Shown: positions 1,473-35,983, counted from the first letter of the stretch. The stretch is 64,000 nucleotides of DNA from Chloroflexota bacterium (GCA_965208315.1 OZ242329.1:704082-768081); one strand, 5' to 3'. Numbers and translations: made by a program. Notes: generated by a model not told the origin, from the sequence alone.

Positions 1473-2870
1473 ATGTCTGGAAAAGTGCGCATGGGCGCGG
1501 TGAAAGTGAACATCACACCGCCGGTAGGCACCCATCTCGGCGGGTACGGAAACCGCCAGAGACCTTCCGACGATATTCACGATGACCTCTTCGCTTCTGC
1601 CCATGTGTTTGCGGACGAGACAACGACCGTTGCCGTCGTCGGCGCGGATCTCGTCGACATATCACTGCAGCGTACGCGCGCCATTCGCAAGAAGATTGCG
1701 GCTGCGACGGGCATACCGGGCTCCCACGTCATGTTGGGCATGACTCATGCCCATAGCGGGCCCAATACAAAAGACTGGGGCGCGGGATTGCCGGGCGCCG
1801 GCGTCCCGTATCCGGGCGGTATACCGGATGAGGACCTCACCTATGCTTTGCCCATCCTCGACCATGACTACCTTGCCGAGTTGGAAAACAAGATCACCGG
1901 CGCGGTTGCCATGGCGGCGCAACGACTGCGGCCCGTCGTGGGTGACATAGGCACCGGCGAGTACGGCCTCGCCATTAACCGCCGGGGCGAGCGGAACGGC
2001 GAAGTGGTCAATTGCCCACGCCCCGATGGACTCGTTGATCACTCAGTGCCCGTGCTGCGCTTTGATGCGGAAAATGGCCATCCGGCGGGTATCATCTTCA
2101 ACTATGCCTGCCATCCGACGAGCATGAGCGATAACTACGCCATCAGCGCCGACTATATCGGCCCGTCTCGATCCTTCGTAGAGGAGGTCTATCGTGATGA
2201 CTGTGTAGTGGGCTTTCTGCTCGGCTGCCACGGCGACATTCGACCCAACTACACCGACGAAACGGGCAGCCGCTTTCGCTCGGCGACGTTTCCCGAGCTT
2301 GAGAGGGAAGGCCGCATCATGGGCGCGGAAGTTGTGAAGACTCGGGAGCGCATCAGCCCCCGTTCCCTTGAGGGAGTTGCCGCTGCGAGCACGCCCATCG
2401 TCGCCCCTTACAGCGAACCGCCAACCGCTGAGTACCTGTGCGCGTCCCTTGAAAGTGGGGCGTACCCCGATAAGGGAAGAGGGCTGTCATTCTCTAACGC
2501 CCGATGGGCTCAGCGCATTCTCGGTCAGCTCGAAGCCGGTACTTTGGCCGACGGCTTGGAAACAGAGCTCCAAGTGATCCGCGTCGGACACCTGGTATTC
2601 GTCGGCTTTCCCGGAGAATTCTTCTTGGAGTACGGCATGGAGACGCGCACGCGCGTCAAGGAACAGTTTGGGCTGGACGTCGTCCACGTAAGCATGGCCA
2701 ACGACATGATCGGCTATGTGGCTTCGGACCGAGAGATTCCGCGCCGCGGCTACGAAGTCGGCTCCTTTCATGACGATGAATTGGCACCGTCTTACTTCGA
2801 CTATGGCACCCAAGGCCTCTTTGTAAACCGGGCGCTTGAGCTTGTAGGCGAGACTCTTGCGAATTCATGA
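1473..2870 (+). CDS. neutral/alkaline ceramidase-like hydrolase family protein (tandem paralog)
   Basis: Same family as the upstream gene (NITPPVG, GMTHAHSGPN). Track ORF begins at TTG 1458. ATG 1473 is preceded by GAGGAAAC, a likely RBS. Confidence 0.6.
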   Translation: MSGKVRMGAVKVNITPPVGTHLGGYGNRQRPSDDIHDDLFASAHVFADETTTVAVVGADLVDISLQRTRAIRKKIAAATGIPGSHVMLGMTHAHSGPNTKDWGAGLPGAGVPYPGGIPDEDLTYALPILDHDYLAELENKITGAVAMAAQRLRPVVGDIGTGEYGLAINRRGERNGEVVNCPRPDGLVDHSVPVLRFDAENGHPAGIIFNYACHPTSMSDNYAISADYIGPSRSFVEEVYRDDCVVGFLLGCHGDIRPNYTDETGSRFRSATFPELEREGRIMGAEVVKTRERISPRSLEGVAAASTPIVAPYSEPPTAEYLCASLESGAYPDKGRGLSFSNARWAQRILGQLEAGTLADGLETELQVIRVGHLVFVGFPGEFFLEYGMETRTRVKEQFGLDVVHVSMANDMIGYVASDREIPRRGYEVGSFHDDELAPSYFDYGTQGLFVNRALELVGETLANS

Positions 2871-3084
2871 ACAGGCGCCAGGCCGATCCTTGAGACACGT
2901 CTAGTTCACGTAGACAGCCTCCTTGCCCAGGGCAACGTGGATCGATTGCGGTAACCAAGCTAGGGAACGACTGCTGGGTGGGACGGCAGGCACGATTTGA
3001 AGGCTTATAACAGCGCGTGCTACGCTTAGACAGACCTCTCACGTAGCTCTATGCTGCTCTTATGCTCCTACTGAAAGACCCTGC

Positions 3085-4053
3085 ATGCAGACCCCCATCG
3101 AACCCGGCATCTTTCTTCCCGCGCTGGAACTCTGGCTCGATTCGCGGCGCGTGAAGCCGGAAGGGTACATCTCTCATGCCCACAGCGACCACCTGGCCTC
3201 GCACCATCACGTGCTCGCCACCGCCGAGACCATAGCCCTCGCCGCCCAGCGGATGAAGATCAAGCAGGCGCAGCCGCTACGTTTCGGTGAGCCGCTGGAG
3301 CGCGACGGCTATACATTGACACTCCTCCCGGCAGGCCACTGCCTCGGCTCGGCGCAGGTTGTCATAGACGTGCGCGCTACCGGGGAACGTATCGTGTATA
3401 CGGGCGACCTGCACCTTGGGGATGATCTGTTCGGGCAACCGGCGGAACCCATTCCCTGCGACACGCTCATCATCGATGCCACGTTCGGACATCCGGACTA
3501 CGTCTTTCCCGCGCGCGCGACCGTAAGCGAGGACGTGTGCGCGTGGGTGGAAGAAACTCTCCATTACGGTGAAGTACCCGTTGTCCTCGCGTATAGCCTC
3601 GGTAAAGGCCAGGAAGCGCTGTACATCCTGCTTGAAGCCGGTTTCGAGGTGCAAGTGCACGAGTCCACGTTTGCGATGACAGCGGTATACCAACAAATGG
3701 GGGTGCGATTTCCTGGACGGTTCACCCGCTGGCGCGGCAGACGGGAGGCAGGCACGGTAGTGCTGATGCCGCCGCACGTGCGCAGCCGGCGCGAGATGTT
3801 TGCCCTTGCGCCGTACCGCACGCTTCTGCTCAGCGGCTGGGCGGCCGACCCATCCTGCAAGTATCGGATGCGCGTCGATGAGGCACTTCCCCTGAGCGAT
3901 CATTGCGACTGGAATCAACTCAACGACTACGTTGCGCAGTCGCAACCCCAGCGTGTGTTTACGATGTTTGGCCCGCAGCACTTTTCTGCTTTTCTGCGTG
4001 ATAAAGGTATCGATGCCTGGCCCCTGGAAGCCAGGCAACCGGCAATGTTCTGA
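3085..4053 (+). CDS. MBL-fold metallo-hydrolase (beta-CASP-like; possibly DNA-repair associated exonuclease)
   Basis: HAHSDH (HxHxDH) motif at the N-terminus. 322 aa. Confidence 0.5.
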   Translation: MQTPIEPGIFLPALELWLDSRRVKPEGYISHAHSDHLASHHHVLATAETIALAAQRMKIKQAQPLRFGEPLERDGYTLTLLPAGHCLGSAQVVIDVRATGERIVYTGDLHLGDDLFGQPAEPIPCDTLIIDATFGHPDYVFPARATVSEDVCAWVEETLHYGEVPVVLAYSLGKGQEALYILLEAGFEVQVHESTFAMTAVYQQMGVRFPGRFTRWRGRREAGTVVLMPPHVRSRREMFALAPYRTLLLSGWAADPSCKYRMRVDEALPLSDHCDWNQLNDYVAQSQPQRVFTMFGPQHFSAFLRDKGIDAWPLEARQPAMF

Positions 4054-5156: not shown

Positions 5157-6893
5157 TTGGCTGTAGCCCGCTTGAATGAGAACATCCGCCATGAGCCGGA
5201 CGAACCGTGCTCGCTGTTTGAGGCGGTTGCGGTTGGAGCGCAGGGCGTACTAATAGTTGTCGCGCCCGCAGTCGTTATCGTTGCTATCACGGCGGTGGCA
5301 TCCGGTCAAGACGAACGCTATCTGACGTGGGCGGTATTTGCGTCACTCATCATTGGCGGGGCAATCACGGCGCTGCAGGCGGCTGGCATCGGCTGGCTGG
5401 GTACTCGCCATCTCTTGATAACCGGCACTACGCCGAACTATGTAGCCGTCTCGGTGCTGGCATTGGACCAAGGCGGCCCGGCCGCACTCGCAAGTCTGAT
5501 CGTCCTTTCGTCGCTGTTCTACCTGGCCATTGCCGTTTGGCTGCCGCGCTTGCGGCGAATCGTCACGCCGGCCGTTTCCGGCACGGTGCTCATGCTTATC
5601 GCAACGATGATCCTGCCGGTGGCGTTAGATCGCATGCATGAAGTGCCCGAAGGCACCCTGCCGATCGCGGGTCCGTTCGTTGCGCTCGTTACACTCATAG
5701 CAACTGCCGTTCTGGCCTTACGCGCGCCCGTGTCTTGGCGGCTGTGGTCACCGCTCCTTGGCATTGGCGCGGGCTGTGTGGTAGCCGCCTTCTTTGGCAT
5801 GTACGATTTCGAGCGACTCGTTACCGCGCCTTGGTTCGGCTTACCCGATGGCGGGTTTCCCGGACTGGAGCTATCCCCGCCGACAGGCTTTTGGGCGTTG
5901 TTGCCGATGTTTTTGGTTGTAGCCCTCGTGCAGGCCATCAAGACCGTAGGCGACGCGATGGTCGTCCAGCAAGTCTCACAGCGCAAACAACGCGCCATCG
6001 ACTTCCGCTTGATTCAGGGGGCTCTCTACGCCAACGGAGTTGGCATACTGCTTTCCGGTCTTGCGGGCACGCCGCCCACGAGCGCATACTCGTCGTCCAC
6101 CGTCTCGCTCATCAATCTTACCGGCATCGCCGCGCGCAGAGTTGGCTACGCCATAGGCGTGATTTTTCTAATTCTGGCGCTATTCCCGAAAGTCACGGGC
6201 TTGCTGCTCACGATTCCTACCCCTATCATGGGTGCCTTCCTGTTGTTCGCCATCGGGATACTGTTCTTCGAAGGAATTCGGACAGTGGCGCGCTCCGGCC
6301 TTAGCTATCAAGATGCTATGATTGTCGGTCTGTCATTTTCCATCGGGGTTGGATTGCAGAACCAGAACATCTTCGCGGGGATACTTAGCTCGCCTTGGGA
6401 CGCCTTGCTCGGCAACGGCATTACCATCGGCGCTGCTGTGGCCATTGGCTTGACTATCCTTTTGGATTTGACCGGCCCACGCCGTCGCCGCTTGGAAACC
6501 CGGCTGGCTGCTTCCAGTATTCCTCACATCGACGAATTCTTGCAGGAGGTTGCCGCCAAGTTGAATTGGGGAAGCGCCGCTACTGAGAAACTGCGCTCTG
6601 CGGGCGAAGAGACACTTTCTAGCCTCCTGCAGCCGGGCAACGAATACCCAACGGACGCTACGCCGCGCTTGATCATCATGGCGCGCACTGATGCGAATGC
6701 GGTGGACCTGGAGTTTCTTGCCGTATTCGCAGAAGACAACCTGGAAGATCGTCTCGCCCACTTGGACGAGCAGTCCGAGACCAGCGACAACAGAGAAGTG
6801 TCATTTCGCCTGCTCCGGCATTATGCATCGTCGGTCCGCCACCAGAAGTATCACGGCTTGGACATTGTCACGGTGCGGGTTGAGGGCTCGTAG
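5157..6893 (+). CDS. nucleobase:cation symporter-2 (xanthine/uracil permease)-like transporter with C-terminal soluble extension
   Basis: Multiple TM helices. QAIKTVGDAMVV and SAYSSSTVSLINLTG-like NCS2 signature regions. Confidence 0.5.
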   Translation: MAVARLNENIRHEPDEPCSLFEAVAVGAQGVLIVVAPAVVIVAITAVASGQDERYLTWAVFASLIIGGAITALQAAGIGWLGTRHLLITGTTPNYVAVSVLALDQGGPAALASLIVLSSLFYLAIAVWLPRLRRIVTPAVSGTVLMLIATMILPVALDRMHEVPEGTLPIAGPFVALVTLIATAVLALRAPVSWRLWSPLLGIGAGCVVAAFFGMYDFERLVTAPWFGLPDGGFPGLELSPPTGFWALLPMFLVVALVQAIKTVGDAMVVQQVSQRKQRAIDFRLIQGALYANGVGILLSGLAGTPPTSAYSSSTVSLINLTGIAARRVGYAIGVIFLILALFPKVTGLLLTIPTPIMGAFLLFAIGILFFEGIRTVARSGLSYQDAMIVGLSFSIGVGLQNQNIFAGILSSPWDALLGNGITIGAAVAIGLTILLDLTGPRRRRLETRLAASSIPHIDEFLQEVAAKLNWGSAATEKLRSAGEETLSSLLQPGNEYPTDATPRLIIMARTDANAVDLEFLAVFAEDNLEDRLAHLDEQSETSDNREVSFRLLRHYASSVRHQKYHGLDIVTVRVEGS

Positions 6894-7106
6894 GGGGAAG
6901 AGTCCGGAAAGACTGTACCGCGCATGAATCGCGCGGAGGGAAGGCGAGCGACAATCAGAGATGGCGGTTTCTTGCAAGTCTACTGTGCTTGTTTGAATGC
7001 TACACCTCCCAAAGCGGATGCCCACGCTCAGGAAGTTGACATGAGTTAGCCGCCATCGTGCGAGTGAATGCTCTCTGCTCGTATTTCGTCCGGCCTGAAG
7101 CTCTGT

Positions 7107-8021
7107 TCAGCCTTGGGTGGTTGTGATCTGATCGACAAACTCCCGCACCACAGCCGCACAGTCCTCCGGTTGTTCCAGGGGGAGAAAGTGTGTGGCATCA
7201 GGCAAGAAGTCGTAGTCCACGCTAAGAATGTCGCTTAGATCTAACGTTGGAAGGTACGAGTAGGGCAGAGTGGGATCAGCCCCGATCACCTTTATGGGAC
7301 AGTGAAACTTCCCAAAATCCACAAGCACAGCGTAGGGGCTGGCGTAGTCCACAATCTGCGCTTCATACTCTGGCGGACACCGCAACTCAAAGCCGGATCC
7401 CCCTTCACTATTGCGCAACGTGGCCTGCGCGATGAGTCTAGTAGTGCCAGGAACGGTGTGCCGGAACGTCGGCGCAAAACTGAGCAGTTCCTCGAAGTCC
7501 TCCCTGGATTTGAAGTGAAAAGTGCGTCTTCTGGCATACCCTGCCGCGCGTGTCGCTGCCGCATCGAACTCCTCGTAGCTGGCTCCTGGCTTGCAGAGCG
7601 GGGGGTCAAAGAGGATGAGCGCCGCGTGCCGGCTGCCCTTCGTCGGCGAAACGAGCGTCGCCAGAGAAGAAACTGAGTGATAAACCCCAGTCAGGGGCTT
7701 CTCGCCAAAGTGGGACTCAATCGCATCCAGGATGAGGTCATGATCGTTGGCGAAGGTCGCAACAGTGTGCTCTCTTATCGAACTGACGGTGTTCCAGCCA
7801 TGGTTTCTCAAGTCATGCACGATGAGGTCGAAGTCGTCGGCGAGCAGAGACCAGAAGGGGTAGTACAGGTCGATGGCCAGACCGTTGCCATGGCACAGCA
7901 CAAGCCGCGGGCCGTCAGGATTGCCGTGGCGTCGCAGAGTGATAGTGGTTTCATCATCCACCGGAACGTCCAACGTGGCGAGGGGTTGGGGTACGTGCCA
8001 AATTGCATCCGAATCTGTCAT
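7107..8021 (-). CDS. alpha/beta-hydrolase fold protein (candidate product-release thioesterase/hydrolase of the PKS cluster)
   Basis: 304-aa ORF. VLCHGNG and TGVYHSVSS nucleophile-elbow-like region. Located just downstream of the PPTase and ACP genes. Confidence 0.4.
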   Translation of the reverse strand: MTDSDAIWHVPQPLATLDVPVDDETTITLRRHGNPDGPRLVLCHGNGLAIDLYYPFWSLLADDFDLIVHDLRNHGWNTVSSIREHTVATFANDHDLILDAIESHFGEKPLTGVYHSVSSLATLVSPTKGSRHAALILFDPPLCKPGASYEEFDAAATRAAGYARRRTFHFKSREDFEELLSFAPTFRHTVPGTTRLIAQATLRNSEGGSGFELRCPPEYEAQIVDYASPYAVLVDFGKFHCPIKVIGADPTLPYSYLPTLDLSDILSVDYDFLPDATHFLPLEQPEDCAAVVREFVDQITTTQG

Positions 8022-8028
8022 TGAGGTG

Positions 8029-8742
8029 CTAGTCTTTCCGCGCTGAGACTCCGCTCAATTCAATTGCTACAGCAGCCGCGAATTCCTGGTTGCCGAGGTC
8101 TTCGATTTGCCACGTGACCTCGGGCAGTCGTGGCAACTGTAGCATACCGCTCTCTCTGCCGCCTACCGTCGCTGCGGGAATCCTGATGCACGTTGCGTCC
8201 AGCACGAATCCTTCGCCCAACGCCTTCAATACCGCTTCTTTGAGGGTCCACAGCTTGAAAAAGAGGTGCGTTCGCGCTTGTCCTTGGGTCAAGGCAAGTG
8301 CCGTCTTCTCTTCCGGGCCAAGCACGGTGTCGATAAGCAAGCTGAGGTCACGCCGCGGGTCGCGTTCCTCGATGTCCACGCCCAAGCGTCCGGTTGGAGC
8401 GCACGCCACCAGCCCATGGTTCCCACTGTGGCTCACGTTGAAGCTAACGGAAGCGGGTTGGTCTTGCACCAGTGCGTACGGTTTTCCAAAGCGGGACGCG
8501 CGAAAGGCAAGCTGCTCGTTCTGGCAATGCAGCTCCTCACAGAGAATGGCGCGCAGAGCGGCGCGACACAGTGTAAAGCGACGGCGCGGCCCATCATACG
8601 CGAAGCGCTGCCGGCGAGCTTGCTCCTGGCCGTCGAGCCATCCCAAGGCTTCACTTTCCCATTCTTTATTCGGGTGATAAGTCAACGTGGATGATAGTCG
8701 TACTGCCAACGTCCCTGAAGTGGTTGCACCAACTGCTGTCAA
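8029..8742 (-). CDS. 4'-phosphopantetheinyl transferase, Sfp-type
   Basis: FNVSHSG, GVDIE and WTLKEAVLKALG motifs. Confidence 0.8.
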   Translation of the reverse strand: MTAVGATTSGTLAVRLSSTLTYHPNKEWESEALGWLDGQEQARRQRFAYDGPRRRFTLCRAALRAILCEELHCQNEQLAFRASRFGKPYALVQDQPASVSFNVSHSGNHGLVACAPTGRLGVDIEERDPRRDLSLLIDTVLGPEEKTALALTQGQARTHLFFKLWTLKEAVLKALGEGFVLDATCIRIPAATVGGRESGMLQLPRLPEVTWQIEDLGNQEFAAAVAIELSGVSARKD

Positions 8743-27338: not shown

Positions 27339-27413
27339 TGGTAGCGGGGGAGGGATTCGAACCCTCGACCTTCAGGTTATGAGCCTGACGAGCTGCCACT
27401 GCTCCACCCCGCG
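27339..27413 (-). tRNA. tRNA-Met (CAT), initiator-like
   Basis: Manual fold: CGCGGGG acceptor, A11:U24, CUCAUAA anticodon loop, TTCGAAT T-loop, encoded CCA. Non-Watson-Crick 1:72 pair (C:U). Confidence 0.85.
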
Positions 27414-27461: not shown

Positions 27462-27797
27462 GAGATGCGTGTTGAGTAGACCGATAAGCCCCATTCTGTC
27501 GCGGACAGCCATCTGTCTTGGGCGGCAGCTTGCGCCGCGCCTCCTTGCGGCCTACCCGGGACTCCGCGAGCAGCCTCTGCGTCCCTCTCTTGGCCTTGCT
27601 CCGGGTAGAGGTTACCCTTTTCACTCCGGCTAATGCCCCACTTGCGTGGAAGCAAGACCGGTCTTGGTCTCTGTGGCCCTATTCCTCGCCTCGCGGCGGA
27701 CGGGAGTTACCCGCTACCCTGCTCTGTGGAGTGGGGACTTTCCTCACTACGCCCACGCTCAATGCGCACGCGCTGCGCGGCTGTCTGGTCTACTCAG
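27462..27797 (-). ncRNA. rnpB: RNase P RNA, bacterial type A
   Basis: Minus-strand GAGGAAAGUCC, CACAGAGCAGGGUAGCGGGUAA, GCCACAGAGAC, AGCAAGGCCAAGAGAGG and ACAGAAUGGGGCUUAUCGG motifs. P1 pairing GAGUAGACC/GGUCUACUC. Confidence 0.9.
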
Positions 27798-30100: not shown

Positions 30101-31627
<1,527 letters not shown>

Positions 31628-31763
31628 ACAAAGCGTTCACAAAAGTAAATGTACCGCCTCATCCCAAATAGCCCAACCCCCGACTCTCCAAACAGATAAA
31701 CACCCTTACCTTCATCACTCTTTACCTGTTAACGTGCCGCCTGTCTAAAAACAGGCAAAAATC

Positions 31764-31793
31764 ATAGTAGCACTCATGGGCCGTAAGAGTCAA
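31764..31793 (-). promoter_or_regulatory. 16S rRNA promoter
   Basis: Minus-strand TTGACT-18-TACTAT, about 130 nt upstream of the mature 16S 5' end. Confidence 0.55.
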
Positions 31794-32019
31794 CTGCGTT
31801 TGGCAGGGGAATAAGTAGCTATTGACTTTTCACTTTCTCCTTCGCGCTTGAAGGTGAACGTCCACGGACGAGGGTTGTTCCCGGTTCTCTGTTGCTCCTT
31901 GCAGATAGTGTCTGCCTCGATGCAAATTGCTGGCAGTTGGCCGTCATATACGACACATATCCTCCGCTTCTTGGGCGTTTCCACTACTGGCGTCATTAGT
32001 CTCTCCTTGGAGGTGTCGT

Positions 32020-32877
32020 GTGAACATCCTACAGATCGCCAAGCGTTTCCCCACTCAAGAATCTTGCATCGACCATTTGGAGCAAGTCAAGTGGGGCGAT
32101 AAGCCTCACTGTCCGTACTGTGGCAGCTTCGACGTGGGCCGCAAGGTTGAGAAGGGCTACCTGAAGCGCTGGAACTGCTACGCCTGCACATCAACGTTCC
32201 GCGTGATGACGGGCACTATCTTTCAGGGCACGAAGATACCTCTGCAAAAGTGGTTCGCTGCCATTGCCATCTTGCTGAACGCTAAGAAGAGTGTCTCCAG
32301 CTATCAACTGGCGCGAGACCTAGACCTGAACCAAAAGACCGCTTGGTACGTGGCGATGCGCATTCGCAAAGCCATGACCGATGATGGCGACATGCTGCAC
32401 GGGATCGTTGAAGCGGACGAGACCTACATCGGCGGCAAGCCACGTGGCAAGAAGGTTCCCGGCCAGCGCCGCAAGAGCAAGAAAACCCCCGTGATTGGTG
32501 CGATTGAGCGCGGCGGCAAGGTCAAGGCAGCGCCCGCGCCTCGTGTTACGACGAAGCTCATCAACTACTTCCTGCGGAGCAACGTGGATCCGCGCTCGGT
32601 GCTCGTGACGGACTACTGGCCTGGCTATAACGAAGTCCGTGACTGGATGCAGCACGTGCGCATCAATCACTCGAAAGAGTACGTGCGGGGTGATGTCTAC
32701 ACGAATACCATCGAGGGCTTCTGGGCGCTGGTGAAGCGGGCAATCTCAGGCCAGCACCACCACTACACGGTCGAGCACGCGGGAATGTACATTGACGAAG
32801 CGGCGTACAAGTACAACACGCGGAAGGCAGAGATGCCTTGGGATGACTTCATGCTGAGAGCTTGCGGAGTTTCTTGA
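32020..32877 (+). CDS. IS1595-family (ISXO2-like) DDE transposase with N-terminal zinc ribbon
   Basis: CPYCGS...CYAC zinc finger. Helix-turn-helix region and DDE-region similarity. GTG start 32020 after GGAGG. Confidence 0.8.
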   Translation: MNILQIAKRFPTQESCIDHLEQVKWGDKPHCPYCGSFDVGRKVEKGYLKRWNCYACTSTFRVMTGTIFQGTKIPLQKWFAAIAILLNAKKSVSSYQLARDLDLNQKTAWYVAMRIRKAMTDDGDMLHGIVEADETYIGGKPRGKKVPGQRRKSKKTPVIGAIERGGKVKAAPAPRVTTKLINYFLRSNVDPRSVLVTDYWPGYNEVRDWMQHVRINHSKEYVRGDVYTNTIEGFWALVKRAISGQHHHYTVEHAGMYIDEAAYKYNTRKAEMPWDDFMLRACGVS

Positions 32878-33216
32878 ACTTCTTCGGCTTCTTGAAGCCC
32901 TTGGGTTTACTGAACTCTAGCAGCCCTGTTTTCCTGTTGCGTTTGGGACGCTTTGGCCTTTCGATCCCTCCGGCCCAAAAGCGCTTGTCGTAAAAGTCGA
33001 GGGTCTTGCCACGCAAGCGACGGCCTGCTACAGTAGACATAGCTTTCCTCCAGGAAGCTGTTCTGATCGGAACTTGGGGCCGCCTGTTGACGCAGGCGGC
33101 TTCGGCTTTTTCTAACCCTATTCTAGCACGAGCCAATCCCTCTGAACCTGTACGGCATACCCCCTGGAAGCACGCTTCCAGGGGGTTCTTTGCGTCAATT
33201 CCGACTATACTGTCTT

Positions 33217-33322
33217 TGTCACACCTCAACCAATACGTGGGCAATCTTCCGAGAAGGAAGGGGCACGTGAAGGTTTACTTGCGTGTCCCCTTGCGGTCCA
33301 CGGATTAGGTTGAGGTGTGACA
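33217..33322. repeat. 15-bp perfect inverted repeat with 76-bp spacer (long hairpin) upstream of passenger metallopeptidase gene
   Basis: TGTCACACCTCAACC / GGTTGAGGTGTGACA, with an inner GGGGCACG...CGTGTCCCC imperfect palindrome. Confidence 0.6.
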
Positions 33323-33357
33323 ATCCAACCTTTCATGTGCTGTAAGGGGGCACCTTT

Positions 33358-34617
33358 ATGTATCGTCTCATCTTCTCAATACTCATCTTTGCACTGACCG
33401 CTACGGCGATCCAAGCCACGGAATGCCAGTTCGTGTTCGGCTTCAAAGCCTACCGTGATTCCGTTGGCCATGCTGTTATCGGCGAATGTTTGGAGAATGA
33501 GTGGTTTCACACCCATGGCACGCAGCAGCGCACCACCAACGGCACGCTCTATTGGAACAGGGACACCAACACCGTTACGTTCGTTGAGGGCCAGCCAGCG
33601 CCTAGCCCTACCCCAGTGCCCAGACCTCCGGATCCACCCGTCATAGACGAGGAGTTTGAAAGCGTCTTGCAAGTTCTGCGCGGCACCGGCCCCATCGGGG
33701 AGTACTGGTACAACCAAGTGTACGCGCTAGGGGTTGACGTTAGATTCGCCCCAATAGAAATATGCGGGGAAACGGCGTGCAATGTCGGCGGCGGCGCCAT
33801 TTGGGTGGCGTGGGGATTCTACGCTAAGTATCAGGATAACCCCAGATTCCTTGCTTCCGTCATCGTGCACGAATTGGCGCACGTCGTCTGGGACAACGAG
33901 GGAAGACCAGACACGACCACTGAGGACTGCTTTGCCAATGAGGCCAACTCAGAGAAGCACCGTGCGCGCTGGCTCATCGAGTACTACGGCGACCGAGTAG
34001 ACCGAATAGGCCATTGGGGCGTGATAAAAGCCTACCGCGCGGGCACCATGCTGGAAAGGGTCAAGTCAAGTTCGGGCTGGCAGAGACATTGCGAGAAGTA
34101 TTATGAATCTGTACCAACACCGACACCCGCGCCAACGGCAGCACCGTCACCCACGCTGGCACCGGAAGCGTGTTTGCTTTCCACTGAGCACGCCTATCTA
34201 GTCGCCGTCGTGAAGTTCAGCAAAGCAATCCAGCCATATCGCGAGGCCATGTGGAAAGCGACCGACAGCGCGGAGAATACCCATACATGGGTCAAGAATC
34301 TTAGCTGGCCTACCGCACGCCAAAGGCTGCGTCTAAGGACGGCCATGAATACTGCTATCCGCAGTTTCAGTGATCTTGCAAATGCCATGGCAACAGAGTA
34401 TCTCAACGTCCCCTCACCTCCCACCGAACGTACAGTCAAGATAGACGAGTACATCAGAGAGGGTTATCGCATAGCGTTTGCGGCGGGGCTTGCTTTAGTG
34501 GACCGGTCAACCGCGTCTTTCTTCATAGAAGCGGGTAAGTACCGTGGAGACATTTCAGGAGTGCAATTTGCGCATTACCGCTACCACAATGGGATTGCGG
34601 AACTGCCATCGTGCTAG
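33358..34617 (+). CDS. secreted putative zinc metallopeptidase (HExxH), IS passenger
   Basis: N-terminal signal peptide. HELAH motif. Two Pro/Thr-rich linkers. AAGGGGG RBS. About 50% GC. Confidence 0.5.
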   Translation: MYRLIFSILIFALTATAIQATECQFVFGFKAYRDSVGHAVIGECLENEWFHTHGTQQRTTNGTLYWNRDTNTVTFVEGQPAPSPTPVPRPPDPPVIDEEFESVLQVLRGTGPIGEYWYNQVYALGVDVRFAPIEICGETACNVGGGAIWVAWGFYAKYQDNPRFLASVIVHELAHVVWDNEGRPDTTTEDCFANEANSEKHRARWLIEYYGDRVDRIGHWGVIKAYRAGTMLERVKSSSGWQRHCEKYYESVPTPTPAPTAAPSPTLAPEACLLSTEHAYLVAVVKFSKAIQPYREAMWKATDSAENTHTWVKNLSWPTARQRLRLRTAMNTAIRSFSDLANAMATEYLNVPSPPTERTVKIDEYIREGYRIAFAAGLALVDRSTASFFIEAGKYRGDISGVQFAHYRYHNGIAELPSC

Positions 34618-34728
34618 AACCGCCTCACATTACTCCCAACCTGAACGGATTCCCATGCTAGAATAAACAAGTGCTCGAAGCAGGAACTTCGAGCACTTGA
34701 AACCTCATCAAACCCCAATTGGAGGGTG

Positions 34729-34952
34729 ATATGTCTACTGTACTTTCCTCTGCTCAGTGCGTCAACAATCATGCCGATCAAAGTTTTGACGCAGCGCTCC
34801 GGGTCTACGTTCGCAACGGCGTGGACATTGCGCGCGCTCTGTTTCTTGTGGCCTACGGCGGTGTCGATGGATGCTTGGCGTGCGCTGCCGAATGGCACGT
34901 GAATCTGATACGGCTTGAAGGGCTTTATGCTGAGGCAAACCAACAAAGATAG
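34729..34952 (+). CDS. hypothetical small protein (IS passenger)
   Basis: GGAGGGTG RBS 6 nt before ATG 34729. 74 aa. Confidence 0.35.
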
Positions 34953-35983
34953 TCAATAGCTACTTATTCCCTTTGGCAGGTCCTCCTCGAGTGATTTACC
35001 AGTTCTCGCGAGCTGTTGTGTCGGCCGGGCAACGTGCACAGCGTTGGTCGATAGCGGGAGGCTCTGAAGCCGGCAGTGGAGCGTTGTCGGCACACGAGAG
35101 TGTAGTAGCCAAACCAAATAAACGCTGCCTTTGCCTGGCGCTAGAGACTCTCGACTTCCTGGGGTGCAGCCTGTTGCCTACACTATCCGGCTGCTGGTCG
35201 GTGAGATACCGGACCGGCAAAACAAGCCTCTCTGGCAAGTGCCGGCGGATTCGCGTGGCAGGCCGATGGTGGTGAGGAATCATGACTGTGGATAACCAAG
35301 ACGCACGCTGGTCGCGAGCGCGACAGGTCAAGGAGAGCACGTCCCTATTCAAGGGATACCGGCAAGCATCGGCCCGTGCTGAGCCGGGTCGCCTTGAGGC
35401 GCCGGCAGAAGTCTAGTGTTATCGAAGCTGGCGGGCGCACCCCTCACTGGACAACGTGCGATGCATAGGTACATTGTCTTCGTCAAGAGGAAGAGTACAT
35501 TGCGTCCGCTATGCGTAAATGTGGACAGTATTGGCTTTATGTCTGTCCGCCGGAGAACTCCCAGGGCTTCTTCTCCCACGGGAGCCGGACGACTGGATCT
35601 AAGAAACTTGCTATGGTCAATGCCAACAAGGAAGACTCAAATGTGGTACGTCGATGCGGCCGCCAATGCGCAAGAGACTACGTGGCGAAACCACAGCGTG
35701 ATGGGTATCAGCGCGAAGACGCAGCGCTAGAAGAAAGGAGCTGAACCGGCAAGGCGGGCACCTTATAATCAAGGAACATCTGGACGCCGTGCAACATACC
35801 GCGGAAACCGCTCTCGAGGAAGGCGGTTACCTCTGCTAAGGTTTTCCAAGCGAGCCAGGCTTTTTTCACTCGCTCGGAAGGCCTTTTGCGAGCGTAATCG
35901 CTATCCAGGTAGGCACAACATGCCAAGGGTATGCTGTTCGGCTGTAGAGACGACTAAACAGGAATCTACTTATTGGAAACACA

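Follow-up and report, generated by a model that had tools for sequence, protein, structure and literature searches.

An intact cargo-carrying IS1595-family insertion sequence from Chloroflexota with a predicted zinc peptidase passenger and a conserved structured leader

Transporter insertion sequences (tIS) of the IS1595 family have been described in the subgroups ISNwi1+ and ISPna2+ (Siguier, Gagnevin & Chandler 2009, Res Microbiol 160:232, cited in PMC7986276). With these elements the locus described here shares a single DDE transposase combining a zinc ribbon at its N-terminus with a DDE_Tnp_IS1595 domain, as well as short terminal inverted repeats (TIRs), 8-bp target duplications, and passenger genes within the ends. 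The end consensus of ISNwi1 in ISfinder, ggnnatTAT, resembles the GGGAAT(A/T)A of the clade to which the present element belongs. That element lies in a 64,000-nt stretch of DNA from a Chloroflexota bacterium, hereafter the window, where positions 31807-34971 constitute one intact, recently active tIS of 3165 bp in the IS1595 family. We consider the locus as a whole quite likely to be best explained as an active tIS of a new clade, with a zincin cargo, a switch leader, and antisense control. Its boundaries are as follows.

31799-31806, no strand assigned: left copy of the 8-bp target-site duplication (TSD), TTTGGCAG, read directly and identical to 34972-34979
31807-31827, plus strand: left TIR, GGGAATAAGTAGCTATTGACT, a perfect 21-nt repeat found in none of the shuffles
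34951-34971, minus strand: right TIR, partner of the left TIR
34972-34979, no strand assigned: right copy of the 8-bp TSD, TTTGGCAG, read directly

The exact 20-nt end GGGAATAAGTAGCTATTGAC occurs twice in the window, at 31807-31826 (plus strand) and 34952-34971 (minus strand), and none of 100 dinucleotide-preserving shuffles matched it with three mismatches allowed. The precise ends proposed in an initial annotation are thus confirmed, with a perfect repeat of 21 nt rather than 20, as is the 8-bp direct repeat said to bracket them, which lies directly outside both TIRs; TIRs and TSD this perfect greatly exceed what chance would give. Another assembly holds a second-site copy (L002/L006) with 0 mismatches over 3165 bp and a different left flank, the divergence beginning exactly at the TIR; one Logan contig spans exactly TIR to TIR, and others break within the element. 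Between its TIRs the element carries the cargo gene, a 73-aa ORF and a 68-aa ORF, all unchanged in the second-site copy, so that the proposed identity as a passenger-carrying IS holds, reinforced by that copy and by the 8-bp duplications of related elements. Because the suggested search for an empty site, run across related assemblies, found none, we infer the insertion event from the TSD and the second site. By analogy with other members of the IS1595 family, the element would move by DDE transposition, with the transposase recognizing the 21-bp GGGAAT...TTGACT ends and cutting the target with an 8-bp stagger.

The insertion point lies 6 nt upstream of the -35 box of a candidate 16S rRNA promoter, with the 5' end of mature 16S rRNA at 31629. 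This promoter-adjacent insertion, like the passenger leader and the left-end 68-aa ORF discussed below, is additional to the initial annotation.

31764-31793, minus strand: candidate 16S rRNA promoter, TTGACT-18-TACTAT with an upstream TG, a consensus match only, in the flank outside the IS
32020-32877, plus strand: IS1595-family DDE transposase gene, 285 aa, with a GTG start and a GGAGGT ribosome-binding site, identified by profile matches

The annotation of the transposase as IS1595-family and ISXO2-like is borne out by matches to PF12762 (9.7e-34, profile positions 1-153 of 153), PF12760 (1.7e-8, the N-terminal zinc ribbon) and NF033547 (6.2e-55, 186 bits against a cutoff of 75). Among 15 homologues the zinc-ribbon cysteines C31, C34, C53 and C56 are invariant, as are D133, D198, E232 and K239, which by their position are the putative catalytic residues. 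The gene is intact and, judging from its dN/dS of 0.10 against the sister element L007, under purifying selection.

Nine related element types were recognized at ten insertion sites, each with a perfect 8-bp duplication: L007 has its own, CTTGTCGC, as do L009, L010, L011, L012, L017, L018, L019 and L020; L010 and L011 are identical copies at separate sites of one genome, and L019 and L020 likewise of another. Because all of these element types carry passengers, they constitute a new clade of cargo-carrying, or transporter, IS. The clade, previously unnamed, is found in Chloroflexota and related metagenome-assembled genomes, and its members share GGGAAT termini. In the canonical layout, both TIRs contain a -35 box whose promoter faces inward, that on the left being directed toward the transposase and that on the right toward the passenger via a structured 5' leader of ~110 nt that begins just 51-52 nt from the right tip. 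TIR-embedded promoters are seen in L009, L012, L017, L018 and L019, and in canonical relatives the transposase promoter takes its -35 box from the inner TTGAC of the left TIR. Passenger orientation varies among elements. The window element and L007 are rearranged derivatives of this layout, in which leader and cargo are internal and point in the same direction as the transposase, and the cargo is flanked by two mirrored modules, each consisting of a promoter, a hairpin and a ribosome-binding site. In the window copy no recognizable sigma-70 promoter was found for transposase or cargo, and the -10 box that would match the TIR -35 box is missing. The modules and the small ORFs associated with the element are listed here.

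31790-31996, minus strand: 68-aa ORF pointing away from the transposase gene; an L017 ORF of equal length shares 55% identity with it (E 1e-22)
32849-33040, minus strand: basic 63-aa ORF, convergent with the transposase gene and overlapping its 3' end by 29 nt
33074-33105, plus strand: intrinsic terminator 3' of the transposase gene, a 14-bp stem followed by CTTTTTCT
33120-33128, minus strand: module A, extended -10 box TGCTAGAAT facing the transposase 3' end, mirroring module B
33159-33186, plus strand: perfect hairpin of 13 bp, 3' of the transposase terminator and 5' of the cargo leader, from a repeat search
34656-34664, plus strand: module B, extended -10 box TGCTAGAAT for the 73-aa ORF, the mirror image of module A
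34668-34699, no strand assigned: 13-bp hairpin serving, in the plus-strand direction, as 5' stem-loop in the transcript of the 73-aa ORF
34731-34952, plus strand: 73-aa ORF containing Cys and His, 78% identical in amino acids to an ORF of L007

The module A box keeps its position and orientation in L007, L010 and L012 (four elements with the window), and the module B box is conserved at position 5174 of L007, which also has a hairpin similar to that at 33159-33186. On the minus strand, the terminator hairpin at 33074-33105 becomes the 5' stem-loop of a predicted antisense transcript, and the hairpin at 34668-34699 reads as a terminator with the tail TTTATTCT. The conserved module A promoter, directed at the transposase 3' end, probably makes an antisense RNA that damps transposase expression. 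The basic 63-aa ORF has a GGAGG ribosome-binding site and begins MSTV at 33040, not at 33039 as annotated; at the same position L007 has an unrelated acidic 53-aa ORF (26% identity), and nucleotide conservation is absent across 32868-33104. Put forward as a possible gene, this ORF is without protein conservation in L007 and probably encodes no conserved protein, being more likely a marker of the antisense transcript.

By sequence comparison the other two small ORFs are conserved genes, neither of which has a match in Pfam, NCBIfam, PADLOC or PHROGs. The 73-aa ORF has a dN/dS of 0.11 against L007, its homologue is absent from the remaining clade members, and its stop codon falls within the right TIR; the small passenger ORF of the initial annotation is therefore present, with 73 codons from its ATG instead of the 74 proposed. 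The 68-aa ORF runs out across the left TIR and takes its final codons from the flank, and its L017 homologue sits downstream of the transposase. The suggestion that the passengers are of lower GC content is marginal overall (cargo 0.557 and 73-aa ORF 0.541, as compared to transposase 0.571 and remainder of the window 0.585) and clearer at third codon positions (0.63 and 0.54, respectively, versus 0.75).

33214-33360, plus strand: structured cargo leader, from fold, covariance model and covariation
33358-34617, plus strand: cargo gene, encoding a 419-aa HExxH protein, from sequence, profile and structure comparisons

The leader, ~110 nt directly 5' of the cargo start codon, is predicted to form a three-way junction, in which an outer stem P1 (33216-33231 with 33308-33323) encloses an inner stem P2, the junction, and hairpins A and B. 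Transcription is predicted to start at the base of P1, and a TATACT -10-like box lies at 33206-33211. An anti-Shine-Dalgarno (anti-SD) motif, GUCCCCUUG, is found at 33285-33293, followed by the Shine-Dalgarno (SD) region of the cargo, AAGGGGGC, at 33344-33351 and the ATG at 33358. The fold z-score is -5.7 in the window and -5.0 to -9.6 across elements. Rfam left the leader unmatched, both for the window at gathering thresholds and for 31700-35100 at E up to 1. A covariance model, R1, built solely from the near-identical leaders of the window and L007, finds three diverged leaders (in L019/20, L017 and L010/11), each ending at a passenger ATG. The leader is thus present in five elements, and four of the nine element types have none; where it occurs, it precedes zincin genes and an Imm_superinfect gene. 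In an alignment fitted to the model and comprising only four independent lineages, 26 of 41 pairs have compensatory two-sided changes, a count reached by none of 500 shuffles, and 96.2% of cells are paired as compared to 78.8% in shuffles (again 0/500) and 26-46% in slide controls. Model scores are far higher on the sense than on the antisense strand. In all five leaders the anti-SD can form a 12-15-bp duplex with the SD, with an energy of -23 to -29 kcal/mol versus -8 to -13 for shuffled SD regions, and L017 has a matched C-to-U and G-to-A change in the two partners. Such structure, conserved at a fixed position upstream of a start codon, is that expected of a cis-regulatory RNA, and by these comparisons the leader is a new conserved structured RNA outside the known RNA families.

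The ~419-aa HExxH ORF of the initial annotation was found as described. Its product begins with a signal-peptide-like N-terminus (residues 1-20, judged by eye), followed by an LGFP-like module at about residues 22-79 with a match to the PS1 LGFP domain, a first Pro/Thr linker, a zincin-fold HExxH domain at about residues 95-250 (H171, E172, H175, C191, E195, W205 and C245), another Pro/Thr linker, and a C-terminal helical part of low conservation (residues 270-419). The homology and structure search proposed for the cargo supports the zincin fold and not membership in a curated peptidase family, since no Pfam or NCBIfam family matched at E < 0.1; relatives of the cargo do match DUF6782, SprT-like and LGFP, and a PDB profile search returned M48 at E 0.02. 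Within the cargo subclade, H171, E172 and H175 are at least 90% conserved, E195, a putative ligand, is nearly invariant, and the Cys pair is conserved. Against L007, dN/dS is 0.43 in the centre of the protein and saturated in the N- and C-terminal parts. The same HExxH domain is a passenger in the window, L007, L009, L010/11 and L019/20, and belongs to a family of 971 proteins, largely from Chloroflexota. The cargo is probably an exported protein tethered to the envelope or to glycan, and its zincin-type domain makes a zinc peptidase the most likely prediction.

Two of these conclusions can be weighed against other accounts. Fortuitous repeats, a decayed and immobile relic, or a piece of a larger island would accord with the unrecovered empty site and with the lack of an obvious transposase promoter in the window copy. 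Such an origin is extremely improbable for a block that exists as an identical copy elsewhere, with a different flank from exactly the TIR onward, in a clade with perfect 8-bp TSDs at ten insertions and with a transposase that is intact and under purifying selection. Rather less remote, and still unlikely, is the idea that the cargo is a non-catalytic surface or binding protein or another HExxH enzyme, such as a 2-oxoglutarate/Fe oxygenase like ChlH: most of the 971-protein family has lost HExxH and kept the Cys pair, and the curated peptidase families went unmatched. Yet all five IS-borne versions, together with their closest relatives, retain HExxH and the Glu downstream of it, the other top structural neighbours are almost all zinc hydrolases, the relatives match DUF6782 and SprT-like, and a 2-oxoglutarate-dependent oxygenase would be unexpected as an exported, disulfide-bonded protein.

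For the action of the leader there are likewise several readings. Because it holds both an anti-SD and an SD mimic, a translational switch is suggested: hairpin B would pair the anti-SD with the mimic and leave the real ribosome-binding site free, and the opening of hairpin B would allow the anti-SD to close that site, such that the leader could serve as a translational on/off device for the passenger. Forcing the anti-SD onto the SD costs 10-18 kcal/mol in stability relative to the folded (ON) state, so a switch would need a trigger. The stability of the folded state is also what a passive RNA would be expected to have, namely a 5' stem-loop protecting against 5'-end-dependent decay or an RNase III site insulating the passenger from read-through, with no switching at all. 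This is a reasonable if doubtful reading: transcription is predicted to start at the base of P1, 5' hairpins also follow the element's two other promoter modules, and a perfect helix of 16-18 bp is a plausible RNase III substrate. A simple stabilizer, however, needs neither a three-way junction with invariant junction sequence nor a covarying 12-15-bp complement of the ribosome-binding site. The palindromic P1, perfect over 16-17 bp in every lineage, might instead be maintained by concerted processes at the DNA level, with the leader serving as a subterminal hairpin or cruciform, a binding site for transposase or a host factor, or an attC-like site of passenger capture or inversion. In integron attC sites it is structure, not sequence, that is conserved, and by eye the CCTCAAC...GTTGAGG of P1 loosely resembles attC core sites; the closeness of the canonical leader to the right tip, the variable passenger orientation, and the inverted modules flanking the window cargo would fit as well. 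Even so, a role as DNA is improbable, because neither an integrase nor a second recombinase is present in the element, extrahelical bases of the kind usual in attC are missing from the stems, and 13 G-U pairs versus 3 A-C mismatches indicate better folding on the sense strand. Moreover, the leader always ends in a ribosome-binding site and ATG, the anti-SD/SD covariation makes sense in RNA only, and the leader of the window and L007 is conserved at ~1.4 kb or more from either end. Returning to the switch, we tentatively propose, as a possibility short of an even chance, that the leader represents a new cis-regulatory RNA class of the IS cargo slot, a three-way-junction switch transcribed from an IS-end promoter that sets the expression of any passenger. 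Because the canonical passenger transcript converges on the transposase gene, such a leader would also tie passenger expression to repression of the transposase by antisense RNA. If this is true, the IS1595 clade is a portable, self-regulating expression cassette, and may have helped to spread and diversify the 971-member secreted protein family in Chloroflexota.

The clade differs from described IS1595 tIS in its transposase, which shares no more than 40% identity with plasmid-borne IS1595 transposases (35.5% with that of ISPepr2, the closest to have a name). It also differs in having TIR-embedded promoters at both ends, a conserved structured passenger leader, and one protein family carried repeatedly, none of which, to our knowledge, has been described for IS1595. 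As compared to the small zincins (DUF6782, SprT-like/Wss1, M48, M56 BlaR1 and minigluzincins), the cargo is without direct sequence-family membership, has a conserved disulfide pair (C191-C245), is predicted to be exported and joined to an LGFP-like module by Pro/Thr linkers, and comes from a family in which most members lack HExxH. Like IS10 RNA-OUT and the antisense RNAs of IS200 and IS30, the element has a conserved internal promoter directed against its transposase gene, but this promoter faces the 3' end of the gene rather than the translation start, and the antisense transcript predicted from sequence includes a ribosome-binding site as well as a short ORF that varies. Finally, the leader shares with translational riboswitches and RNA thermometers the three-part arrangement of SD mimic, anti-SD and SD in a structured 5' UTR with a conserved junction, and differs from them in matching no Rfam family, in an ON state strongly favoured thermodynamically, and in being tied to the cargo slot of a mobile element instead of a metabolic gene.

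The ends of the insertion are defined to the base. The window holds exactly two occurrences of the 20-mer GGGAATAAGTAGCTATTGAC, one inverted relative to the other, and 100 dinucleotide-preserving shuffles gave no match, even when up to three mismatches were allowed; a repeat finder extends the arms of this terminal inverted repeat (TIR) to 21 perfect bases. Because the octamer TTTGGCAG stands directly outside both arms, the element measures 3165 bp (31807-34971). The 20-bp TIRs and the 8-bp bracketing repeat described in the initial annotation are thus both borne out, and so is the assignment to a cargo-carrying IS1595-family element, for which transposase domains, ends, duplications and passengers agree. 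The features discussed here are the following.

27339-27413, minus strand: tRNA-Met gene
27469-27796, minus strand: RNase P RNA gene
30103-31629, minus strand: 16S rRNA gene
31793-31764, minus strand: candidate 16S promoter
31790-31996, minus strand: 68-aa left-end ORF
31807-31826 and 34952-34971: left and right TIR
32020-32877, plus strand: transposase gene (285 aa)
33020-33140, minus strand, and 34645-34765, plus strand: two mirror-image modules
33159-33186: 13-bp perfect hairpin
33214-33360: structured leader
33216-33231 and 33308-33323: 16-bp perfect inverted repeat (outer stem P1)
33285-33293: anti-SD segment, in hairpin B of the leader
33358-34617, plus strand: cargo gene (419-aa HExxH protein)

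The transposase matches PF12762 (9.7e-34), the IS1595 zinc ribbon PF12760 (1.7e-8) and NCBIfam NF033547 (6e-55), and when it is aligned with 14 homologues of 54-79% identity, the four zinc-ribbon cysteines and residues D133, D198, E232 and K239 are invariant. The window element is an IS1595 transporter IS (tIS), and it has clearly moved recently. It is present at the same site in several other assemblies, and on a 44.7-kb contig (loci L002 and L006) a copy with 0 mismatches over 3165 bp adjoins a wholly different left flank, the divergence starting exactly at the first TIR base and the contig's final base coinciding with that of the right TIR. Since another contig from the sample of L006 carries the 16S-side junction, the element occupies at least two sites in that sample; one Logan contig spans it exactly from TIR to TIR. 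A check for the empty site in related genomes recovered none, either with the junction 20-mer or among contigs bearing the neighbouring 273-aa gene, all of which carry the IS or break inside it. Only two Bryobacterales contigs matched the junction 20-mer, and as their flanks are unrelated they were set aside as chance matches.

The insertion site is about 170 nt upstream of the mature 5' end of a 16S rRNA gene. The only promoter-like site aimed at this gene is a candidate promoter with the form TTGACT-18-TACTAT and an upstream TG, and 6 nt upstream of its -35 box starts the duplicated octamer, where an UP element would lie. That place is now taken by the AT-rich end of the IS. Every assembly of this locus examined carries the insertion, which appears fixed and constitutes a natural test of how an rRNA promoter tolerates replaced upstream sequence. 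No 23S or 5S gene follows the 16S gene within the 64-kb window; the RNase P RNA and tRNA-Met genes lie downstream on the same strand, and the arrangement suggests unlinked rRNA genes.

A search with the transposase listed about 7,700 proteins that are at least 55% identical to it. Related elements, reached through transposases of 72-91% identity, all have GGGAAT... termini and a perfect 8-bp target-site duplication (TSD), with no consensus found among the TSD octamers of the clade. A transposase alone would take up roughly 1.1 kb; all members are longer, and thus all carry passengers.

Related elements at loci from other assemblies: length, TSD, passengers, and full-length hits of R1, a covariance model built from the window and L007 leaders only
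L007 (sister element): 3321 bp; CTTGTCGC; counterpart of the window cargo
L009: 2829 bp; CTGAATTG; 274-aa HExxH-domain ORF (E 4e-19 to the window cargo), together with a SocA_Panacea-domain protein (5868-6684) beside a 128-aa membrane protein
L010 and L011 (identical copies, one genome): 2406 bp; GAAATAGA and CACACTTG; 274-aa HExxH-domain ORF; R1 27.2 bits, E 2e-4
L012: 3051 bp; CAATACAC; N6_N4 methyltransferase-HNH fusion (6547-7911)
L017: 2204 bp; GGCGCGTA; Imm_superinfect membrane protein (5799-6161); R1 41.1 bits, E 6e-8
L018: 2008 bp; GTCTAGTC; two small ORFs
L019 and L020 (identical copies, one genome): 2070 bp; GGTTTCGC and CTTTTGGT; 230-aa HExxH-domain ORF (E 2e-29 to the family profile); R1 41.5 bits, E 5e-8
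L021: N6_N4 methyltransferase-HNH fusion (5700-7112)

A domain of the form HExxH...C..E...WW..YG is therefore carried by five distinct elements, the window element, L007 and three others, and in those three (L009, L010/L011, L019/L020) the passenger is opposed in direction to the transposase. L009, L012, L021 and L017 carry passengers of defence or addiction type. Directly left of one IS copy, at L019 2341-4100, stands a restriction-modification pair, an N6_N4 methyltransferase and an SfiI-like restriction enzyme.

The canonical members of the clade share a compact design, with promoters at both ends, one of which feeds a conserved structured leader with an exchangeable passenger. In L009, L012, L017, L018 and L019 the left TIR itself provides TTGAC as a -35 box; an extended -10 box (TGnTAnAAT) follows after 17 nt, then TAGGAGGT and the ATG of the transposase, and the whole array takes up no more than 71-73 nt from the tip. 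The right TIR is likewise a promoter in L010, L019 and L017, where the leader begins 51-52 nt from the tip. The window and L007 elements are rearranged: their transposases start 213 and 441 nt from the tip, respectively, with an accessory ORF in antisense filling the gap, and their leader and cargo are internal and run in the same direction as the transposase. In the window element the -10 boxes beside both TIRs are gone, and no recognisable sigma-70 promoter for the transposase was found in this copy. The L007 transposase gene has lost the canonical start (ATG/GTG AAC ATC...; region 2540-2600): a stop codon closely precedes that point, and the earliest start in frame is a TTG 21 codons further on. 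A non-standard start may be used here, or the copy may be inactive.

In the window element, the leader and cargo stand between two mirror-image modules, each consisting of GTGCTAGAATA, a hairpin, a ribosome-binding site and an ATG, and both of their ORFs start ATG TCT ACT GTA. The L007 module arms (3569-3611 and 5172-5214) are 43 nt long and 81% complementary, and through such arms the cargo segment could have been inverted as compared to the canonical elements. The right-hand module serves as promoter module to a small ORF that the initial annotation had given as 74 aa and that measures 73 aa from its ATG. This ORF is a real gene, 78% identical in L007 with a dN/dS of 0.11 and conserved Cys and His residues, and it ends with a stop codon within the right TIR. 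The basic 63-aa ORF on the opposite strand is present (with its start at 33040, not 33039), but it was discarded as a conserved gene, since L007 has no counterpart, its place there being taken by an acidic 53-aa ORF of no relation, and conservation is missing at the DNA level too. An extended -10 box, TG(C/T)TAGAATA, is aimed at the transposase 3' end in the window element, L007, L010 and L012, and the hairpin that follows it is the transposase terminator on the other strand; from these motifs we infer a putative antisense transcript against the transposase gene. Between that terminator and the leader lies the 13-bp perfect hairpin (ACCCCCTGGAAGC/GCTTCCAGGGGGT), whose form is kept in L007.

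The left-end ORFs have relatives elsewhere in the clade. The 68-aa ORF of the window, of a family that begins MTP..ETPKKR, is 55% identical (E 1e-22) to an L017 ORF (5075-5281, plus strand) located 3' of the transposase, and the 92-aa left-end ORF of L007 (2236-2514, minus strand) matches an 85-aa ORF of L021 (5400-5657, plus strand), both with a C-terminal hydrophobic segment. Matches at such differing positions and orientations indicate that accessory genes have been shuffled between positions in the clade. The lower GC content ascribed to the passengers is only slight in total GC (0.557 and 0.541, against 0.571 for the transposase and 0.585 for the surroundings) and is clearer at third codon positions.

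The cargo, annotated in the source record only as "hypothetical protein" (locus tag OXM03_06630), had been described as a secreted HExxH metallopeptidase. The motif stands (V170-H171-E172-x-x-H175, kept in the central domain with C191, E195, W205 and C245), while secretion and a peptidase role are putative readings of the sequence. The homology search proposed for it yielded 2 relatives by word index and 427 by exhaustive search, the latter revealing a modular protein: an N-terminal module (aa 4-79) is common to hundreds of proteins, the central domain (aa ~88-262) to about ten and the C-terminal part to one. A profile search reached at least 971 proteins, mostly hypothetical and from Chloroflexota MAGs, often several per genome, in which the Cys pair is kept and HExxH is usually absent. 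The family includes the proteins P0133, P0144 and P0272-P0360 and one at L008 8001-9530. Many of its members have the central domain in two tandem copies, and in L010 chromosomal paralogues of the cargo (2300-3589 and 7257-8651) directly adjoin the IS.

The cargo itself matched no Pfam, NCBIfam, PADLOC or PHROGs family, and PADLOC and PHROGs gave no match for any ORF. Among 13 relatives, three match DUF6782 ("putative metallopeptidase", 1.4e-5), three match SprT-like and one matches LGFP; a PDB profile search returned M48 and the PS1 LGFP domain as weak matches. With an N-terminus (MYRLIFSILIFALTATAIQA/TE) that looks like a Sec signal peptide, the cargo is, as predicted from these features, an exported zincin-fold protein with an LGFP-like anchoring module; it is probably a zinc peptidase, and actual peptidase activity seems reasonably likely. 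Between the window and L007 elements, the cargo centre (dS 0.47) and the transposase (dS 0.58) have kept pace in their divergence, with dN/dS of 0.43 and 0.10, respectively. The N- and C-terminal parts of the cargo are saturated, a sign that domains were replaced by recombination. That these elements are repeatedly paired with one secreted zincin-like family suggests a contribution of IS transport to surface-protein expansion and domain shuffling in Chloroflexota.

Before the cargo gene, the arms of the P1 repeat are 76 nt apart and the second arm stops 34 nt short of the ATG. The predicted RNA fold of the leader combines a long and an inner stem with a three-way junction (z = -5.7), with no match to Rfam families. 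The L007 leader is almost unchanged, and those of L010 and L019 have the same architecture with other stem sequences (z = -6.7 and -9.6). The R1 hits in L019/L020, L017 and L010/L011 all end at the passenger ATG; no leader was found in L009, L012, L018 or L021, also with the second-iteration model R2. The motif is absent from the rest of the window and from upstream of the chromosomal cargo paralogues (L008 and the L010 flanks), and on the latter ground the idea that it is a general property of the cargo gene family was rejected. Since it precedes the Imm_superinfect gene of L017 and is absent before the L008 paralogue, the leader belongs to the cargo slot of the IS and not to the zincin gene. 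Leader 20-mer matches in two unrelated metagenome contigs were dismissed as chance.

We consider it likely that the leader is a functional RNA structure. In a covariance-model alignment, used because MAFFT misaligned the diverged stems, standard pairs occupy 96.2% of cells as compared to 78.8 +/- 1.7% in shuffles (0/500 reach 96.2%), and 26 of 41 pairs have changed on both sides as compared to 10.6 +/- 2.3 (0/500), figures that rest on four independent lineages and an alignment fitted to the model. Sliding the partners by 1-3 columns lowers the paired cells to 26-46% and leaves 0-5 compensatory pairs. Perfect P1 stems in which 12 of 16 positions have changed are visible without any alignment. 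An inverted repeat of this kind might instead act at the DNA level; the excess of G-U pairs over A-C mismatches (13 vs 3) favours the sense strand, and we regard a DNA-level role as improbable.

What such an RNA might do is suggested by its invariant junction GUC(C/U)CCUUG, which complements the invariant ribosome-binding region CAAGG(G/A)GGC. A continuous anti-SD:SD duplex of 12-15 bp (-23 to -29 kcal/mol) is possible in five of five leaders, shuffled SD regions give -8 to -13 kcal/mol with 0-1 of 500 reaching the observed value, and in L017 both partners have changed together. In the folded leader the anti-SD is paired within hairpin B to an SD-mimic strand, AAGGGGCAC, the real site being AAGGGGGCAC; once freed from hairpin B, the anti-SD would pair with the real SD, making the leader a translational switch. 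Enforcing the anti-SD:SD state costs 10-18 kcal/mol relative to the folded state, so the leader would be ON by default and would switch only upon a trigger. As a passive 5' stabiliser or RNase III site the leader would require a stable fold, which it has; the anti-SD and SD partners that changed together tell against this role, which we hold to be rather unlikely. A regulated translational switch is a tentative proposal, somewhat less than an even prospect. If the leader is a true switch, it would be a rare regulatory RNA dedicated to mobile-element cargo and a candidate new Rfam family.

The TIR 20-mer had no match in 185,579 GTDB representative genomes or in JGI metagenomes, and the literature search found no paper on these samples, nor any linking IS1595, Chloroflexi and sponge. 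Among plasmid-borne transposases even the closest share no more than 40% identity with that of the window element, the sole named example being ISPepr2 (35.5%); together with the absence of the TIR from the genomes and metagenomes searched, this low identity marks the clade as rare and unnamed. Transporter IS occur in several IS families (PMC7986276). Cargo-carrying IS straddle the boundary between insertion sequence and transposon and have been little studied beyond resistance genes. As compared to known IS1595 tIS, three traits of the clade are, to our knowledge, new: both TIRs contain promoters, the structured passenger leader covaries and shows anti-SD logic, and a zincin passenger recurs.
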